From Octopus vulgaris (taxonomy: Eukaryota), in NCBI GenBank assembly GCA_951406725.2, contig OX597838.1:43896001-43960000 (forward strand): a stretch of 64,000 bases of DNA. The letters run 5' to 3'. The number at the start of each line of letters is the position of its first letter. Within the stretch, counting starts at the first letter, position 1. The notes below the pieces were generated by a model. It was not told the DNA's origin. It saw nothing but the letters and a program-made list of their open reading frames with translations, and ran no database searches. Shown here piece by piece: positions 6,744 to 58,108 of this stretch. Both the position numbers and the translations under genes were made by a program.

Positions 6744-7204
6744 ATATATGTTTATGTGTGTGTGTCACTCACAACAATGCCATATGTATATCAGGTGGCA
6801 TAGCTGAAATTAAAACTTGTGTTGTACGAGGCAAGATTCGCTCTTCGTTCTGCCGTGTTAAATCTCATAACAGCTATGAATGCAAAAAACGAAATTAAAT
6901 CTCGAGATGTTTATGATAGATATAATCTCACTGGAATTACGGATTTCTTGAAACACAGCTTTTAAAGTTTACCTACTGTCAGCAATACTTATCAGATTAA
7001 ATCGAATCAGTCATAATATTTCAACTCAAACACACACACGCACGCACACACACAGACACACACACACACAAAGACACACGTGCACACATGCAAGCACGCA
7101 CACATACATACACACACACATATATATATATATATGTTTGTAAGTATGTATATATATGTATGTATATATAAGTTTATGTATATATTGATGTATATATATT
7201 GATG

Positions 7205-7235
<31 letters not shown>

Positions 7236-7519: not shown

Positions 7520-7555
<36 letters not shown>

Positions 7556-7596
7556 TATATATATTCATATATATATTCATATATATATATATATAC

Positions 7597-7790
7597 ATAA
7601 GAAAAAGGGACAGGCAAAACAGGTTGCTTGACCGCATACCGAAAAAATAGAAATAGCAGTCAAGAATGCTTGTTTCTATCAAAGTTGGACTCCGGAGTCC
7701 AACTTTGATAGAAACAAGCATTCTTGACTGCTATTTCTATTTTTTCGGTATGCGGTCAAGCAACCTGTTTTGCCTGTCCCTTTTTCTTAT
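7597..7790. repeat. Spacer-less 194-bp palindrome in a (TA)n-flanked island (pLTR-like; unpaired tail to ~7917)
   Basis: Centre ggactcc|ggagtcc at 7693/7694; arms complementary throughout by eye. Confidence 0.85.
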
Positions 7791-7917
7791 ATACAGTATA
7801 TATACTGAACTTTACAGAAGTTCCTGCTGGTAATTGGCTATATTTACATACCGAATTCTACCAGTAAATAACTGGGTTTTTTTAAAAGCCTTTATAGAAA
7901 TTATTTACTCTTATCAT

Positions 7918-7950
<33 letters not shown>

Positions 7951-7998
7951 GCATCTATATATATATATATAAATATATATATATTCATATATATATTC

Positions 7999-8036
<38 letters not shown>

Positions 8037-8172
8037 GCATCTATCTATATATATATATATATATATAATTAATCAATATAGGGTGGCAAAAAAAAAAATT
8101 TAGTAGAATTCTTTTGCCACCAGCGGCCTAGTGGGAAAAAATTAAATAGTCATAAACCATTTTTAAGTTCAA

Positions 8173-8639
8173 CATCACAATCAAGGAACGGCCATAATAG
8201 GCCATTCACCCACTAGAAATAACAGCCAAAAGCTTTAACCGCAAAATAACGTCAATTCCGTAAACCAGGAGAAAATTGAAAAACATTTACCCTGTAATTT
8301 CTTAGACGATGCACCGTTTCATCTTCTGTTTAATGGAAAACTAACCTGATTAAATTAAATCAAGCCAATCTACCATAGGCCCTTAGATTCATCAGTAAGA
8401 AATAGCCAATTTCTTACTGATGAATCTAAGGGCCTATGGTAGATTGGCTTGATTTAATTTAATCAGGTTAGTTTTCCATTAAACAGAAGATGAAACGGTG
8501 CATCGTCTAAGAAATTACAGGGTAAATGTTTTTCAATTTTCTCCTGGTTTACGGAATTGACGTTATTTTGCGGTTAAAGCTTTTGGCTGTTATTTCTAGT
8601 GGGTGAATGGCCTATTATGGCCGTTCCTTGATTGTGATG
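8173..8639. mobile_element. 467-bp palindrome (~231-bp arms, ~5-nt loop), pLTR-like, HHR on both strands
   Basis: catcacaatc...gtaagaaat agcca atttcttac...gattgtgatg; unpaired extension 8070-8172. Confidence 0.8.
8408..8516 (+). ncRNA. Canonical-core hammerhead with ~60-nt helix II insertion; mirror copy 8296-8403 on minus strand
   Basis: aatttctta-CTGATGA-atct...agat-GAAA-cggtgcatcg-TC-taagaaatt; 9-bp helix I. Confidence 0.85.
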
Positions 8640-9397
8640 ATATATATATATATATATATACATCTATATATACATAAATTTATATACATACATATATATA
8701 CATACTTACAAACATATATATATATGTGTGTGTGTATGTATGTGTGCGTGCTTGCATGTGTGCACGTGTGTCTGTGTGTGTGTGTATGTATGTGTGTGTG
8801 TGTGTGTGTGCGTGCGTGTGTGTGTGTGTGTTTGAGCTGAAATATTATGACTGATTCCATTTAATCTGCTAAGTATATATACGATAGCTGCAAACTCGTG
8901 CTCGAGTATTGTCATCGCCTGATCGAAAGTCCCACACTTGCAAAAGCTACAAGCAGCCATTTTTGTGATAGGTCTTAGTCCGTTATTCAAGCGATGCCTG
9001 TGCATAATGATTTTTTACGGTGGAGAAAGGATTCGAGCAAATCGAATCCCACTCTCTGAACATGGACAACATAACACATGGTCGGGTCGTCGGTGACTAA
9101 ACTGCTTGGGGATTGTTGCATACGCTGCGGGACGTAAATAAAGCATGTCAAATGGCGGAACACCTGATGAGCTGTCAACATGAGGCACCACACAAAATAT
9201 GTCCATGTGTATATATGCATGTATGTATGGGCGGGGAAGGGGAAATACCTGGGTTGGTGTCTAATCGCGCAGTTGGCCCACTGGTAATGGGCGACCCCTC
9301 TGTTGTTTTGACAACATCTCGCTAGGGGAGGAAAACTGAGAAAAAAACCTGCGACACTGACAGTATTCGAATATGTAGACTAGTTCTTTTCAAGTTT

Positions 9398-10337: not shown

Positions 10338-10503
10338 GGCGAAAGTAAAGAATACGCACAGCCGGTGTTTAGGGTTAGGGTTAGGATTTAGGGTTAGTGT
10401 TAGGGTTTAAGATTAGGGTTAAGGTTTAGGGTTAGGATTAGGGTTAGAGTTAGGGCTTTTGTTACGCCGAAAACAGGTGGTGTATGTATTCTTTACTTCC
10501 ACC
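10338..10503. mobile_element. MITE-like element with ~33-bp imperfect TIRs around degenerate (TTAGGG)n
   Basis: ggcgaaagtaaagaatacgcaca... / ...tgtatgtattctttacttccacc; interior ttagggttaggg repeats. Confidence 0.6.
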
Positions 10504-27478: not shown

Positions 27479-30090
<2,612 letters not shown>

Positions 30091-30232: not shown

Positions 30233-31903
30233 TAGTTTTATTTTTATTTTTATAGCGTGCTTTCACTTCACTACCGAGCACAGCTCTGTGTGCCTTGGGT
30301 TTGTGCTGTGATTTGTTGTGATGCTCTGATGGTTATTGTATGGAAAGTGTTCTGCGTAGGATGTGTGCAGTGCCCAGTAGTGCAATTTTCTGTATGTTAT
30401 ATGTGTTTGTAAGTCCTGGTGTTTTTGTTATGTATTTGTCTGAATATTTTTTTATCATGCCTAATGCACCTACTATGATAGGAATTGTTTCTGTTTTCAG
30501 ATTCCACATTCTAGTTACCTCTATTTCCAGGTCTTTGTATTTTGAGAGTTTCTCCATTTCTTTTAGAGACACGTTGTCATCTGCCGGTACTGATACATCA
30601 ATTAGAAAGCATTTTTTTCTTCATGGTCTCTGACAACTATATCTGGTCTGTTGGCCTTAATTTCTCTATCTGTGTGTATCGGCATATCCCAGAGTATGGT
30701 TGCTTTCTCGTTTTCTGTGACCTTTTCTGGTGTGTGCCTATACCATCTTTTTTCTGTTGTTATTCCATAATGTTGGCATAGCTTCCAATGTATGTAAGTT
30801 CCAACTCTGTCATGTCTGTGAATATATTCCTTCTTAGCCAGGACTGGGCAGCTAGAGATAATATGATTTATTGTTTCTTGTCCATCTCCACATATTCTGC
30901 AGTTACTTGTAATATTTCTTTTCATTACATGTTTTTGGTAATTTCTGGTGGGAGGCTTTGGTCTTGTGCTGCAATTAAAAATCCCTCTGTTTCTGCTTTG
31001 AGTCCTGAGCTTCTCAACCATTGCTGGGATTTTTCTTTGTCTATTTCTTTTGCGTTTAGTTTAGTCCAGTATTTACCATGAAGGGGCTTTTCTTGCCATC
31101 GTTTTATCATGGTTCTTTGCTGTTCTATTTTTAGTTTGGATTTCATTTTTTTTATAGCTTTTGTTGTTTCTTCATCTTCTTCTTCTTCTTCATGTTTATT
31201 AGGTGGTATGATTTCTTGTTTGTATTTGTCAGCTTCCTTAAATACTGAGAACAGTGTTTTGTTTTGCTCGTGTTTTGCCGCTATCTGGATCAGTTTTCCT
31301 TCCTTCTGAAGTAGATATTTTTGCAGTCCTATGGTGGTTATTTTATAGTAGTTTTCCAGCTGTATAAGGCCTCTACCACCTTCTATACGTTGTATATATA
31401 GTCTTTCTATGTCAGATTTTGGGTGATGCATCCTAGATCCTGTCATTATTTTTCTTGTTTTCCTGTCTATTTTGGTCAGTTCATTTCGTGTCCAGTTAAG
31501 GATATTGTAGCTGTAACTTATAACTGGGACAGCTAAAGTGTTGATACCTATTATCTTGTTTTTAGCATTGAGCTCTGTGTTTAGTATTGATCTAACTCGT
31601 CTATAATATTCTTTTTTATTTTCTCTTTCATTTGTGTGTGTTGTGTCTTATCTAGTTCATGGATTCCTAAGTATTTGTAAGTTTGGCTTTGGTCTAATTC
31701 TTTTATTTCATTTGCTTCATCTAGTGTGATGTTGTTACTCTTAACTAGTTTTCCTCTTTTCATGGTTACTTTGGCGCATTTTTCTAATCCAAATTTCATA
31801 TCTATTTCTTTGGTAAATCCATGAACTGTCTTTAATAGTGTTTCCAGCTGTTTGTCATTTGCAGCGTATAGTTTTAGGTCATCCATATATAAAAGGTGGC
31901 TGA

Positions 31904-46048: not shown

Positions 46049-46150
46049 CATGTATATATATATGTATATATATATATGTATATATATATGTATATATATA
46101 TATATATATATATGTAACAAACAAAATTAACAGAATCCGAAAGAATTCTA

Positions 46151-47122
46151 ATGGAAATTTCATCGAAATTATCAACACTCATCACGATGATTGACACACA
46201 ATCCTCTATTTTAAAGGAAATAGAAAAACAGTCTACAGACGGAAAACTTGGAAATGAACACATAAACTTTGAAATTAAGAATTTAGCTGAAATGATACCA
46301 ACAATTATAAAATCTACAAGAGAAAGCCTACCACAACCTCCTTGGATGTCAGAAATAAACGAAAGAAATCTGGAAAAAGAGGCACACCGAAAAAGAGAAG
46401 AGATACAGAAGACATGGAAAAAACTCCTTAACATAAGAAAACAAAACTTCTGGAAGGCATATAAATGCGAAAAATATGCTGAAATACATTCGAAATGGAT
46501 ATCTTTAGCGGCACCCATACTTCAATTATTTCTCGACAAATATGCTACAAATTACGGTAAAGACACCAGAACTCCGAGAAATAGCATTAAAAGTGGACAA
46601 CCTCACCAACGCAACATACACCAGAACACGTGGCAACATGAACACCCGTTTCACCACGAATCGAAGACGAACTACGGTAAGAACTCTTCCCATTTTGTAT
46701 GCAAACACCCTAATGCACACAACATGAACAAAAAGCACAAACAAAATAGATATTGTTTTGAACAGACCATTAGCAGTAGAAATAACAGGAGATCATTTTC
46801 AAGACCTCAACAGAGATTACCCACAAGAAACTGGACAAAAAACCGATCTAGATCTAGAAGTAAACCCAAATCATTTCTCCAGGTGGTTAAAAACAATGCT
46901 AACAAGAAATTGAAAAGTAGCATACATAATACCAAAAACAAGACAGAAAACATAACGAAACCAAGTAAAGTACCACAACCAAAACGCAAAATTCATCAAG
47001 CAAACATCAACAGGAATATAAATCATAACCAGAAAAAAATCCATTTTTTTACGTCAGGACAACAAACACCGGAGAAAGAAAAAATCCAAGAGGAAACATA
47101 CCCCAAACAACTGAACGTATAG
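46151..47122 (+). CDS. PLE upstream ORF (helical N-terminus, basic C-terminus)
   Basis: 323-aa non-repetitive ORF overlapping the RT frame. Confidence 0.6.
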
Positions 47123-49356
47123 ATCCTAAAATAATTAATTTATCAAAAAGAGATCTTGACAATGATGAAATCCAACTTCTGTCAAAAGGACTGAAATTCA
47201 CACCTACACCAACAGCCAACCACCAAGAATTAAAGGAGGATATCCAAAAATTCTGTCGAAAATTACGACTTGTAGAATTCTTCGCTAACAAAAGTAATGA
47301 GATTGATGAATCCCTAGTAAGGAATAAATCAAATTTCACCCCACCAAAAGGAAGAAATAACTACCTTGACCAATACATTGATATCCTGTCTAAATTTCCC
47401 CTTAGACGCAATACCAATGTTAGGCCAAACATTAGCAAATCAGAGATGTCTGCATGTAAACGTATACAAAACGATCAAACAATAATAATTAAACAAGCAG
47501 ATAAAGGTGGTGCAATTGTTATTATGGATACCGAATACTATAAGGATTTGGTTGAAGACCAACTGAAGGATACAACCTTCTATTGTGAAATACCCGCAAA
47601 TATAGACCACCACATCATGAAAAAGATCAACAACCTGATTTCAACACACCACAACTCACTTACGGATAATGAAAAAGACTACATCACCAATTTTGAACCA
47701 AAACCCAGCAACTTCTACGGCTTACCAAAAATACACAAATCAAAAAACATTCAACAGGCAGTAAAAGAACAAGAAAGTGAGTACATAAAATTATTACATC
47801 CAAAAGACCTAAAACTTAGACCTATTATAGCTGGTCCAGCATGCCCTACACACCGTCTAAGCAATTTTATTGACATTGTTTTGAAACCACTATGTACTTA
47901 CATACCAAGTTTCATCAGGGATGACATCGACTTCCTGTCCCATCTTCCCAAAACAACAGAAACAAATTCAGTTTTACTAAGTTTTGATGTGGTAAGCCTC
48001 TACACCAATATTCCACACGATTTAGGAATAAAGGCGATTAAATACTGGTTAGAAAAACATAGAGAAGTGATTCCCAGCAGATTCACAGTGCCATTTATAT
48101 TAGACACAGTCAAACTTATTCTAGAAAATAACACATTCTTCTTCAATGGAAAGAATTACATCCAAATTAGAGGCACGGCGATGGGAACGAGGTTTGCTCC
48201 CGTTTACGCCAACTCTGTAATGGGATACTTAGAAGAACAACTCTACCAAGAGGTGGAGGTAAACTATGGCACTGGACTTAGAAAGTATATTGAAAAGGCA
48301 TGGAAGAGATACCTAGACGACTGTTTCATAATCTGGACAGAATCTCTAAATACTCTGGAAGAGTTCAATATCCTCCTGAACAACCTACACCCATCTCTCA
48401 AATTTACAAAGGAGATGAGTAGTACCAAATTACCATTCCTGGATATAATGGTAATTAAAAAAGAAACCACCATCACCACAGATATATACTATAAACACAC
48501 AGACACACATCAATACCTAAATTTTAAGTCGTGCCATCCACCACATACAAAACGTAACATCCCATACTGCCTAGCCAGAAGAATTTGTACTATTGTAGAA
48601 GATGCAAATATCAGGAACAAACGCCTAATAGAACTAAGAGAATTTTTGCTCAAACAAAAATACCCATCTCTACTTATAGAAAATGGCATACAGCGGGCTA
48701 TAAAAATACCTATACAACAACTTAGGACAACCCAAGGAAGAGGAAAACAAGAACAAGTCATACCATTCATAGTGACACACAACCCATGTCACCAGAATAT
48801 CTTCAACATTGCCAAAGCAAACCTACCAATCATTGCCCAAAGTAATGAATTAAAAGACATAATCAAGGATCGAGCTATGGTGCTTAGTAAAAGACATCCT
48901 AAAAACTTGAAAACATTACTAACAAAGGCAAAATTTGACCTCAGCAACAAAGACCAAACATTCACGGTATCTAAATGCAATGATAGCCGATGTGGCACAT
49001 GCCAATTCATACATACCGGTCAATATATAAACACAAAAACCGGGAAAATATTCACAAACGCGAATATGAACTGCAAAAGCAGAAATTTAATTTACTGCAT
49101 CAAATGCCCAAATTGTGAAGAAATATATGTAGGTCAGACGGGAAACGCACTATTAGAACGCTCACGTGTACACCGGCAACAGATTAGAGACCCAGAGGTC
49201 CGTCAGATACCTTTGAGTAACCACCTAGCAACATGTGGTCGGAAAATATATATAATATTTCCATTCTACAAATTACACAGCCCAAGTGAAATCGAGAGGA
49301 AAATCAGAGAAAAGAATTTTATTGATAAATTCGAACCCAAGCTAAATAAGCAATAA
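47029..49356 (+). CDS. PLE reverse transcriptase + GIY-YIG endonuclease (frame open from 47029; first ATG 47446)
   Basis: IINLS..LLSKGLKFTPTP, ADKGGAIV, YGLPKIHK, FDVVSLYTNIP, GTAMGT, RYLDD, CNDSRCGTC, LIYCIKCPNCEEIYVGQT; no stops. Confidence 0.93.
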   Translation, partial: PEKNPFFYVRTTNTGERKNPRGNIPQTTERIDPKIINLSKRDLDNDEIQLLSKGLKFTPTPTANHQELKEDIQKFCRKLRLVEFFANKSNEIDESLVRNKSNFTPPKGRNNYLDQYIDILSKFPLRRNTNVRPNISKSEMSACKRIQNDQTIIIKQADKGGAIVIMDTEYYKDLVEDQLKDTTFYCEIPANIDHHIMKKINNLISTHHNSLTDNEKDYITNFEPKPSNFYGLPKIHKSKNIQQAVKEQESEYIKLLHPKDLKLRPIIAGPACPTHRLSNFIDIVLKPLCTYIPSFIRDDIDFLSHLPKTTETNSVLLSFDVVSLYTNIPHDLGIKAIKYWLEKHREVIPSRFTVPFILDTVKLILENNTFFFNGKNYIQIRGTAMGTRFAPVYANSVMGYLEEQLYQEVEVNYGTGLRKYIEKAWKRYLDDCFIIWTESLNTLEEFNILLNNLHPSLKFTKEMSSTKLPFLDIMVIKKETTITTDIYYKHTDTHQYLNFKSCHPPHTKRNIPYCLARRICTIVEDANIRNKRLIELREFLLKQKYPSLLIENGIQRAIKIPIQQLRTTQGRGKQEQVIPFIVTHNPCHQNIFNIAKANLPIIAQSNELKDIIKDRAMVLSKRHPKNLKTLLTKAKFDLSNKDQTFTVSKCNDSRCGTCQFIHTGQYINTKTGKIFTNANMNCKSRNLIYCIKCPNCEEIYVGQTGNALLERSRVHRQQIRDPEVRQIPLSNHLATCGRKIYIIFPFYKLHSPSEIERKIREKNFIDKFEPKLNKQ

Positions 49357-49850
49357 TAATAATACTTAGAGGTATTACTTCCACTGCTACGACCATGACC
49401 ACTAACAACAACAACAATACTAAAGGTGATCAAGACGAAGATAGCAGGAAAATTGTCTTATTTAGGGTTAAAAGTTCTATTGCCACCACCATCACCACTA
49501 GCAACAATAATTAAGGTGCTGACAATGATGATGATGACAATTGAAATATAAAAATATAAAAATCTCTGACAAAGGATATTTACAACATTTCTAAAAATAA
49601 CCCAACAATTGCTGCTTCGGCCAGGGTCAAGATACATGACTCTTGACCTGTCCAACAAAGCGTGATGCCTAAACCAATCAGCTCAACCAACCAATCAGCT
49701 TAAGTAATTGAGTGATACTACACACTGATTGGTCAGAATACAGTTTGCAAAACCTAGCACTCTGGAGCCTACCCAGCTGTACTTATAGCACAGACTCACT
49801 CATCTTGCTACAGTCAAAAATTGTGAAGCATGACTGTCAACACTACTACA

Positions 49851-49895
49851 TGAACCCGAAGATTGCAAAATTCAATGCATGAAAGTACTAGTTCA
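49851..49895 (+). ncRNA. Minimal hammerhead (U4C core) in the PLE pLTR
   Basis: tgaac-CCGAAGA-ttgca aaattcaa tgcat-GAAA-gtac-TA-gttca. Confidence 0.85.
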
Positions 49896-50081
49896 ATCAG
49901 AATGAATATTTAACATTCTACTATTTCATTTTATTTTATTCAATTATAATATATTATCTTATAATATATCATTATAAGATTGAATATAAAACGTGAAAAT
50001 CAGACAAGGTTGGAATTCTTTTTATTAATATATTCTTCTATACACAATCACACACACCCATATATATATATATGTATATGA

Positions 50082-53093: not shown

Positions 53094-55448
53094 GGTTACC
53101 CAGAGTTCATTTTTTTAATTTTGTGCGAAGTAGACATGTTTTTTGCTGTGCGATGTTTTTCCTCTTGTGATCATTCATTCATTGTTCGACCGTGGTCGAG
53201 ACAATGGAATTTACCATGCTACGCCAGACTTCACGGTCCATCATGGCATTACGGAGGTCCTGTTGCTGGATGTAGGAGAGTGTGCGCCCTCTGGTATTGC
53301 TTCCAGAGGAGAAGAGTTGAAATTGCCTCGTTTTCAGCTCTACAACAATGTCCAGCAAACTGGACTCTCCTACCTTTCACAAGAGATGATACAGGTGGTA
53401 GTTTCCCATATATTTGCATTTTGGTTGGATGACGCTTCCACGAGAGATTTTGAGCTCTCATAAGGAGGCGAGTGTAGGTTCCATCCAACCGCCTCTCAAG
53501 CTTCTTTGATAACGTCCAGGTTTCTGAGCCATATAGTAGAATTGGTTCGACTGTGGCTTTGAAGATTTCAAGTTTGAAGTCTCTACTTAGATTTGATGAC
53601 CAGATCTTATGCATGCCATTACAGTCTGACCAGGCCATACCCTTTCTAGTTAGAAAATCTTTTCCAGATGATGATATGTATGACCCAAGATATTTGTAAT
53701 CAGAAACCATATTTAAGGGCGCATTGTTGAGAGTGTGGATGATGCAATCACTGTTGGACAGGCATATTTGTAATCAGAAACCATATTTAAGGGCGCATTG
53801 TTGAGAGTATGGATGATGCAATCACTGTTGGACAAGCACGTGTTTATATATTCAGTCTTGGCCTCATTGAGGTAAAGACCTACACAATTTGAGGCTTGTT
53901 CGAGAGATTGTAAAAGAGACTGGGCATTGGAGAGAGAATCACTGATAAGAGTGATGTCGTCAGCAAAGTCAGTGTCTGTCAAGTATTCAGCTGGGTGTCT
54001 GGAACTTCTTGGTTTTATTTCAAAGCCCTTGCCAGAGATGGTATCAACTGACATACGTCCTTTTGTGATGGAGGGACGTTGAACGAGAAGTTGGGAGAAG
54101 TTGAGGTGTTCTTCCCCAGAATGTGATTCGTCTGAGAAGGAATTGATGGAGTACTTGGAAACGATGGACAAGGAAATAGAGAAGAATTATGCAGCGGCGT
54201 CGAGAGAAGAAAAAAATCGAAGAAATAAACCTAGAAGAGCTGAGCAAGTTCAAGAAAATATTTAAAATGGTGGTGGGGAGCGACGTGAAAGTGTTCCCCC
54301 CCATTAAAGAAGCGTTAAAGGAGAAACATGAGAAAACTATAATTTATAGAACATACTCGATAGCGGCCAGGAAGATTGAAGCTATGTCAACAGCTCAAGT
54401 GTAAAAGGCGCTCAAAACCAATCTGGCAGGGAATCACCTACCTCAGAGGAGGTGGAAAATTTGGAACAGTGGAGGTGCGGTTTCGGGAGGTAGCTATCGC
54501 CAGGCTGCATTCAGCAACACCGCTGAGAACTGAAAGTATGATAAAGAATATTACGGTCGGAGACGTTACACTAAAAGTCAGAGTGGAAGGGAGGATTCCG
54601 CGGTGCTATAAATTATGGATTGAAAGGTCACCTTAGAGCGGATTGTCTTTCACCACCTGTGAAGGCTAAGGAAAGCCAAGACCCCGAGAAAGTAGTTGAC
54701 ACTCCACTGCCCGTGGAGGCTGAGGAGAAGCGTGAGAGTGAAACGGCACCACAGACGAAAAAGTACAAGCATCGCGGAAGAGGAGGTGAATACCAGATGG
54801 GAAACGGTGGAAAAAGAGAGAAGGAAGAGGAGAAAGAGGACACACATGGTAAAGGACGACCCACGACCCACACCCACCTGGCTCCAACCCACACTCACTC
54901 TACCCCAACCACTCCCTACAGACACCAACGCCCCCCCATTCCCTGTGTGACATAAACACACAGGAGCCTCGAATTTCCCCACCCCGGCCCTTGGATAAAT
55001 TCGTAATATTATATAACAGTAAAAAGAAGAACTTTGCTACGAGATAAAAACATGGGACAAAGCAACAGAAGTGGACGTAACAAGATGGGGTGTGCCCGGG
55101 TAGGTTTGCTGTGGCGGACCCGGAATACCTCTCGAGATTAACGAATTACGAGGAAGACATCGACTTTGACTGGTGGGTTACGAAAATGGACATCGGCAAA
55201 ATACTGAAAATGGTAATCTATGCATACATTTTAAAGGAACTTGACAATGACATTTTCCAAAGAAGTGGAAACTAGCAGTTACAAAGACACTACCAATGTT
55301 AGTATAAATTAATGTTTAAAAAAGGTAAAAAAAAAAGGTTGTATTAACAGGTTCAATGAAGTCGGCTTCATTTCTCCTTTCATTATATTTAAATACATTC
55401 TTTCCAGGGCCCTTTATGTAAGGCCTTCATGACCAATTTCGTGAAATA
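53094..55448 (+). mobile_element. ORF1-only L1/Tx1-like retroelement inserted in a SINE A head
   Basis: 15-bp TSD aagaagcttgcttcc (53079-53093/55449-55463); frameshifted knuckle VEGRIPRCYK../..KGHLRADC; ends aaataaa. Confidence 0.7.
53172..54057 (-). mobile_element. 5'-truncated RTE LINE nested in the Tx1-like element
   Basis: DTDFADD, YKYLGS, ILLYGSETWTL, (TGAA)n tail; 12-bp TSD tcct(c/t)ttgtgat; internal 74-bp tandem duplication 53690-53837. Confidence 0.88.

Positions 55449-56894: not shown

Positions 56895-58108
<1,214 letters not shown>

Follow-up and report, generated by a model that had tools for sequence, protein, structure and literature searches.

The DNA analysed here, referred to below as the window, is a stretch of 64,000 nucleotides from Octopus vulgaris (assembly GCA_951406725.2, contig OX597838.1, positions 43,896,001 to 43,960,000 of the forward strand). 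At 8173-8403 and 8409-8639 it contains a perfect inverted repeat, whose arms of 231 nt are 100% complementary and separated by a 5-nt spacer. The resulting 467-bp palindrome is the longest inverted repeat of comparable quality in the window, and its size, identical arms and loop of about 5 nt are as described in the original prediction. The element as a whole is asymmetric, as its left arm extends about 108 nt (8065-8172) past the mirrored part to a second fixed end of the repeat family to which it belongs. The features of the element and its flanks are given below, with unit positions numbered from the predicted ribozyme cut on the natural unit of locus L007.

7918..8067, no strand: target microsatellite (TA)n, left flank.
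8065..8409, minus strand: long or B arm, which covers 345 nt of a 495-nt unit, runs from unit position 391 to 241 with the ribozyme sense on the minus strand, and ends on the outside at fixed site B of the family, abutting (TA)n.
8065..8172, minus strand: unmirrored tail of about 108 nt between fixed sites A and B, with a short internal hairpin inside.
8297..8403, minus strand: mirror hammerhead motif, with CTGATGA from 8395.
8404..8409, no strand: inversion junction, a 5-nt loop plus 1-nt microhomology.
8409..8639, plus strand: short or A arm of 231 nt, which runs from unit position 397 to 132 and ends on the outside at fixed site A of the family, abutting (AT)n.
8409..8515, plus strand: type I hammerhead motif, predicted cut after 8507.
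8640..8725, no strand: target microsatellite (AT)n, right flank.

The copy consists of partial units only and includes no complete 495-nt unit. It is identical to the L007 unit apart from an A-run, and for this reason it is counted as young.

In the plus-strand motif, helix I is formed by 8409-8416 paired with 8508-8515 (8 bp), the conserved core by CUGAUGA at 8417-8423 and GAAA at 8492-8495, and the cleavage triplet GUC (GTC in DNA) ends at 8507; helix III is short and near-palindromic, and stem II is extended and branched (68 nt). A structure-aware scan of the whole window matched nothing apart from this motif and its mirror. A search of Rfam gave no hammerhead match for the motif, either at the gathering score or at E<=5, and the miRNA matches obtained at E<=5 were attributed to the hairpin shape and the microsatellites. 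A canonical hammerhead had been claimed for both strands. The core is indeed intact on both, but the motif is not canonical in shape because of its branched stem II and the lack of an Rfam score. When constrained, the active ribozyme fold has a free energy of -24.4 kcal/mol, compared with -27.6 kcal/mol for the minimum free energy structure. Among the fetched copies, core variation is restricted to tolerant positions (the free base of CUGANGA), with GUC as the cut triplet in 116 and GUA in 108, both of which satisfy the NUH rule. Helix III is predicted to be able to self-pair as a dimer (-17.5 kcal/mol), and a near-palindromic, dimer-forming helix III is described for metazoan type I motifs in the available text of PMC4209133.

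The left arm of the element has many 99% matches in the 2.8-Gb genome, mostly within tandem arrays of units of about 495 nt. By exact words, which give lower bounds, a 21-nt ribozyme word is present in at least 647 copies genome-wide, the site A junction (unit position 131 to (AT)n) in at least 418, and the site B junction (near unit position 241) in at least 602 on the forward strand. The unit, 495 nt with 36% GC, has a longest stop-free frame of 68 aa; no open reading frame for a reverse transcriptase (RT) with a GIY-YIG domain was found in it, so it does not qualify as an autonomous Penelope-like element. With a type I hammerhead in the unit and short, low-GC, non-coding units that form tandem arrays at other loci, the family matches the non-LTR retrozyme type, its self-cleavage being predicted. 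It is abundant among the assembled contigs of four DNA or unlabelled sequencing runs, while a single 137-nt contig of depth 3.7, from a run guessed to be RNA, is too weak for an expression call. Variants private to one sampled locus were present in all of its units in 30 cases and in some of its units in 147, a split compatible with either one template or a homogeneous source array. At several multi-unit loci, such as L036, L074 and L120, locus-private variants occur in every unit and in both arms (7/7 units at L036), a pattern that several rounds of copying from a single RNA circle could produce.

To describe the form in which the family inserts, two samples were drawn by exact junction words on contigs C1-C4, a choice that biases them toward young copies. 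The A-anchored sample comprises the first 100 site-A matches among those listed, obtained as 99 stretches, and with the 8065-8639 copy it amounts to 100 loci; the B-anchored sample comprises 40 stretches spanning 41 listed site-B loci outside the first sample. An inverted, head-to-head arm adjoins the anchored one at 84/100 A-anchored and 27/40 B-anchored loci. The inverted arms of the A-anchored loci end at 231-248 in 77 cases, at site A in one and elsewhere in six, and those of the B-anchored loci end at 128-136 in 25 of 27 and never at B. Thus, 102 of the 111 inverted insertions pair an end at about 131 with one at about 241, and a same-site pair was found once (1/111). From these counts it follows that the family normally inserts as a head-to-head pair whose outer ends are unequal, one short and the other long. 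The pool of 102 A-B insertions used below leaves out 16 A-anchored and 13 B-anchored loci at which no inverted arm was detected, several of which have stubs too short to align, as well as 7 and 2 inverted loci, respectively, whose partner end lies elsewhere. At most sampled loci, as in the 8065-8639 copy, both outer ends join (TA)n. The inner junctions are variable, mostly with 0-6 nt of microhomology or with short inserts often copied from nearby sequence. An inverted, 5'-truncated head-to-head copy, a tail of about 110 nt at one end only and a microsatellite target together make up the signature of Penelope-like insertions. A MITE or other DNA transposon was considered and rejected, as the outer ends lie about 110 nt apart in the unit and the centre differs from copy to copy.

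A palindrome with arms that are 100% identical and with an exact inversion junction that occurs once in the assembly could in principle have been made by a fold-back chimeric read during library preparation or assembly. Such a read would mirror everything past the junction. The arms here instead end where the family has its fixed sites, each at a different one, and are followed by unmirrored flanks, which speaks against this explanation, and the same layout recurs at the 102 sampled loci. Loci L217, L221 and L222, on other contigs, have almost equal arm lengths with different junctions, and in this young family the two arms are often identical (33/83 sampled insertions; mean arm divergence 0.64%). 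No junction-bridging contig was listed in six sequencing runs, of which one was empty and others may come from other individuals, and palindromes collapse in such contigs. An artefact is accordingly regarded as extremely improbable, the least credible of the explanations considered. The 8065-8639 element is a real and ordinary copy, and both its class and its inverted layout are already known.

It had been proposed that the fold-back point lies at the 5' edge of helix I, that this position points to snap-back priming during reverse transcription, and that inversion points across family copies be compared with the ribozyme. In the 8065-8639 copy, the right arm does begin at the first base of helix I (8409). 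Across the family, inversion points are non-random with respect to the ribozyme, but the hotspot is the predicted cleavage site and not the helix I edge. Among the 204 inner ends of the 102 insertions, 45 lie at +1 to +30 past the predicted cut, compared with 12 in each of the two adjoining 30-nt windows (p=1.3e-5), and none lies within the last 7 nt before it. The peak is present in both arms despite their 110-nt difference in length, and in both it exceeds a smoothed-length null (24 vs 9.8 and 21 vs 6.8). The 5' edge of helix I (388-402), in contrast, holds 5/204 ends, two of which come from the 8065-8639 copy, with 2 and 4 in neighbouring windows.

A genome-wide search for fold-backs gave a similar picture, with 67 directly 3' of the predicted cut, 8 around the edge of helix I, and 3 and 4 in the two windows taken as controls; the respective anchor words were found on both strands in 70, 44, 20 and 48 of the 140 sampled loci. 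The difference between the cut site and helix I is clear (p=7e-8). For helix I against the controls, the ratio is 7 fold-backs per 43 available loci vs 6 per 68, with p=0.20 without the 8065-8639 copy and 0.14 with it; one of the three matches in the first control window is unlike the family and is left out of this ratio, its inclusion giving p=0.27. Helix I can therefore be credited with a weak preference at most (p about 0.2), and its edge is not borne out as a favoured inversion point. At the six helix-I-edge loci, most ends lie at 390-396, and a minor stop at 390-397 could mark the start of a primary transcript just upstream of helix I. As for the cluster at +1 to +30, a cut RNA is inferred to have often been the template, and the cluster would be an indirect genomic footprint of the predicted self-cleavage; part of the cluster could instead reflect stalling at the ribozyme structure.

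The origin of the palindrome during reverse transcription is still held to be most likely, and what is at issue is how the second arm was made. According to the snap-back explanation, a cDNA primed at site B turns back near helix I and then serves as its own template up to site A. The geometry of the 8065-8639 copy fits this, since its long arm runs 6 nt further than the short one and the 5-nt loop would be closed by a 1-bp stem (the 1-nt microhomology). Some family junctions also lie in natural hairpins, as at L057 and L092, and snap-back is the published reading for rotifer Penelope palindromes in the available text of PMC3846280. The arm lengths are difficult to reconcile with it, as they exclude the copying of one arm from the other in 61/102 insertions, or 51/102 at a stricter margin. 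Among 35 near-fold-back loci with equal unit numbers, the short arm runs further in 18, the two are level in 10 and the long arm runs further in 7; the 18 count against snap-back because a B-primed hairpin cannot produce them. Moreover, several centres have neither a loop nor a natural hairpin, such as that of L107, and no significant hotspot is seen at the edge of helix I. Snap-back thus fails as the general route of the family and is compatible with the 8065-8639 copy, for which we consider it unlikely.

A better explanation than self snap-back is that each target strand primes one cDNA and that the ends of the two cDNAs are then joined. In 29/102 insertions the starts of the arms lie no more than 10 nt apart, compared with 6.4 by permutation, and outside the cleavage cluster this holds for 20/85, compared with 4.1, which suggests that one RNA end, or one coordinated stop, limits both arms. 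The short inserts and the 0-6 nt of microhomology at the junctions are as expected for end-joining. Taken together, the palindrome is best explained, with a probability of about 0.78, as a young copy of a non-coding hammerhead repeat with a 495-nt unit, inserted into a TA microsatellite and likely made by a borrowed Penelope-like RT/endonuclease that copied one RNA twice, once per nicked strand, with the copies joined head to head. In this reaction, both target strands would be nicked and each 3'-OH would prime at one of two fixed sites on the RNA. Both cDNAs would then extend to the 5' end of the RNA, which would often be the ribozyme cut, and the joining of the two cDNA ends would yield the head-to-head palindrome. 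In the 8065-8639 copy, both arms run through the cleavage site, so its template would have been uncut or re-ligated there, and the two cDNAs would have passed the site and stopped at 391 and 397. With two cDNAs copied from one RNA, the junction at the edge of helix I becomes largely incidental, and the presence of the ribozyme on two strands a by-product of insertion chemistry. A comparable process is L1 twin priming, in which the same RNA is copied into a further cDNA primed by the other target strand, resulting in a 5' inversion joined by microhomology. Unlike in L1, the priming sites of the 495-nt family are fixed and its cDNAs copy the same stretch of RNA, so that the arms overlap as a palindrome.

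Potential sources of such an enzyme exist in the genome, where a GIY-YIG search found two families with intact RT and GIY-YIG domains, of 781 aa and 775 aa. One member of the latter lies in the window itself, at 46118-50060 on the plus strand, between TA microsatellites. Its 775-aa frame (47029-49356), with RT and C-terminal GIY-YIG, is preceded by an overlapping 334-aa frame and has a CX4CxxC linker as in Neptune/Nematis types, and a copy of the element on another contig matches it at 99% identity. The second young family, with an open frame of 781 aa, is found at many places in the genome (e.g. L185-L192 and L200-L202), has partial tandem pLTRs of about 500 bp and (TA)n ends, and is 46% identical to the element at 46118-50060. 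The intact Penelope-like elements end in (TA)n, and 3/20 fetched loci (L194, L201 and L204) are head-to-head with unequal outer ends. When the 495-nt unit was compared with 35 GIY-YIG loci and the window's own element, representing the two intact families, similarity was limited to short words, and no convincing hammerhead was found near the start of the open reading frame in either family. The mobilising partner of the 495-nt family is hence a putative one.

In vitro, purified Poseidon PAc acts on both strands of an AT-rich target, which it cuts and extends from two internal RNA start sites whose spacing sets the tail (Frangieh et al. 2024, PMC11167929), features that the 495-nt family appears to share. 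In that assay, the use of start sites does not differ between strands, whereas in the octopus family each site is used once per insertion, a rule that requires the sites to be used in an ordered way. Ribozyme cleavage is dispensable for PAc, and RNA-seq reads at the cut site were not seen (PMC11167929); the junctions of the 495-nt family, by contrast, pile up behind the predicted cut.

The element has close neighbours of related form. A second head-to-head insertion, with 97-bp arms, zero loop and a tail of about 125 nt, lies at 7597-7918 and belongs to a young tandem family of about 615 nt with a two-fixed-end layout like that of the 495-nt family; neither a motif nor a structure search detected a hammerhead in this family. 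An identical 64-nt imperfect TA microsatellite is found on both sides of this insertion (7536-7599 and 7956-8019), possibly a long target duplication. Both young insertions are enclosed by an inverted duplication of otherwise single-copy sequence (6985-7213 and 8640-8876), as indicated by a 20-nt word that is found genome-wide at these two places only. The duplicates differ by several substitutions and by microsatellite length changes, and the duplication looks older than the insertions it encloses and may be a fold-back with the TA microsatellite at its centre. Three more palindromic elements beside TA microsatellites, at 598-956, 1038-1206 and 57631-58085, have arm identities of 86-93% and are probably older insertions or MITEs. 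Elsewhere in the window, a short degenerate TTAGGG array lies at 10367-10455, internal to the chromosome, and matches to zf-RVT, DUF6451 and RVT_1 below curated cut-offs at 27740-29053, 30605-31060 (minus strand) and 53252-54186 (minus strand) are likely fragments of decayed LINEs.

It had further been suggested that the ribozyme, paired with its own antisense in a hairpin transcript, could be self-silenced and serve as a Dicer or ADAR substrate, and one may ask whether the locus is kept because its dsRNA silences the family or feeds these enzymes. Folding supports the hairpin itself, as a read-through transcript of both arms is predicted to form a single 231-bp duplex of -437.6 kcal/mol that would hide both ribozymes, far below the -24.4 kcal/mol of the active fold. 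In addition, rare variants present in all units of a locus are slightly rich in A>G changes (5/43 vs 4/171, p=0.018). This excess is weak, and no hyper-edited copy was found among the sampled loci, none of which has three or more rare A>G changes. The whole ribozyme is present on both arms in 43/102 A-B insertions, so nothing singles out the 8065-8639 copy, and the copy is young. The neighbouring family, in which no hammerhead was detected, makes the same palindromes, from which it follows that they are tied to the insertion machinery and not to the ribozyme. The predicted ribozyme-hiding duplex is hence a physical consequence common to many copies, self-silencing is not supported as a special trait of this one, and selection for the hairpin is considered very improbable.

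The 495-nt family combines traits of systems that have been described separately. Metazoan non-LTR retrozymes, as presented in the available text of Cervera and de la Pena 2020 (PMC7229834) and of Li, Clavereau and Pollet 2026 (bioRxiv 10.64898/2026.07.22.740005), likewise consist of tandem units that are short, AT-rich and non-coding and that each contain a type I hammerhead, are dispersed as monomers to multimers, and have been proposed to ride on Penelope-like elements. Unlike the retrozymes portrayed there, the 495-nt family has a 68-nt branched stem II and mostly head-to-head insertions with two fixed outer ends; in that text the word 'inverted' occurs zero times in PMC7229834 and once in the bioRxiv report. 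Circular RNA and self-cleavage, both features of retrozymes, are predicted for the octopus family. Penelope-like insertions, according to the available text of Arkhipova et al. 2013 (PMC3846280) and Craig et al. 2021 (PMC8557442), usually have the layout of an inverted, 5'-truncated head-to-head copy plus a tail at one end, with junction palindromes and microsatellite targets, all of which are shared by the 495-nt family. The latter differs from them in having no open reading frame and in its tail of about 110 nt, compared with 30-40 nt (PMC8557442), and its junction statistics oppose the self-priming reading of PMC3846280. The formation of tandem and inverted ends in Penelope-like elements is named as an open question in the available text of PMC8557442. 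At the level of titles and the beginnings of abstracts, no literature report of a one-each rule or of a cut-site cluster was found, although supplements could bear on this.

The 8065-8639 locus is thus ordinary among hundreds, and the junction statistics of the family are the part that matters more. There is about an even chance that the insertion junctions preserve, in the genome, the traces of a Penelope-type reaction that makes two copies of a single RNA in a strict order of one per fixed site, and for which ribozyme-cut RNA is a major template in vivo. The use of each site once, the shared stop of the arms and the sharp edge at the predicted cut provide direct predictions for a reconstituted assay. 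If this reading is true, the inverted ends of Penelope elements would no longer be attributed to self-priming, and the family would provide the first genomic evidence of retrozyme self-cleavage shaping integrated DNA.
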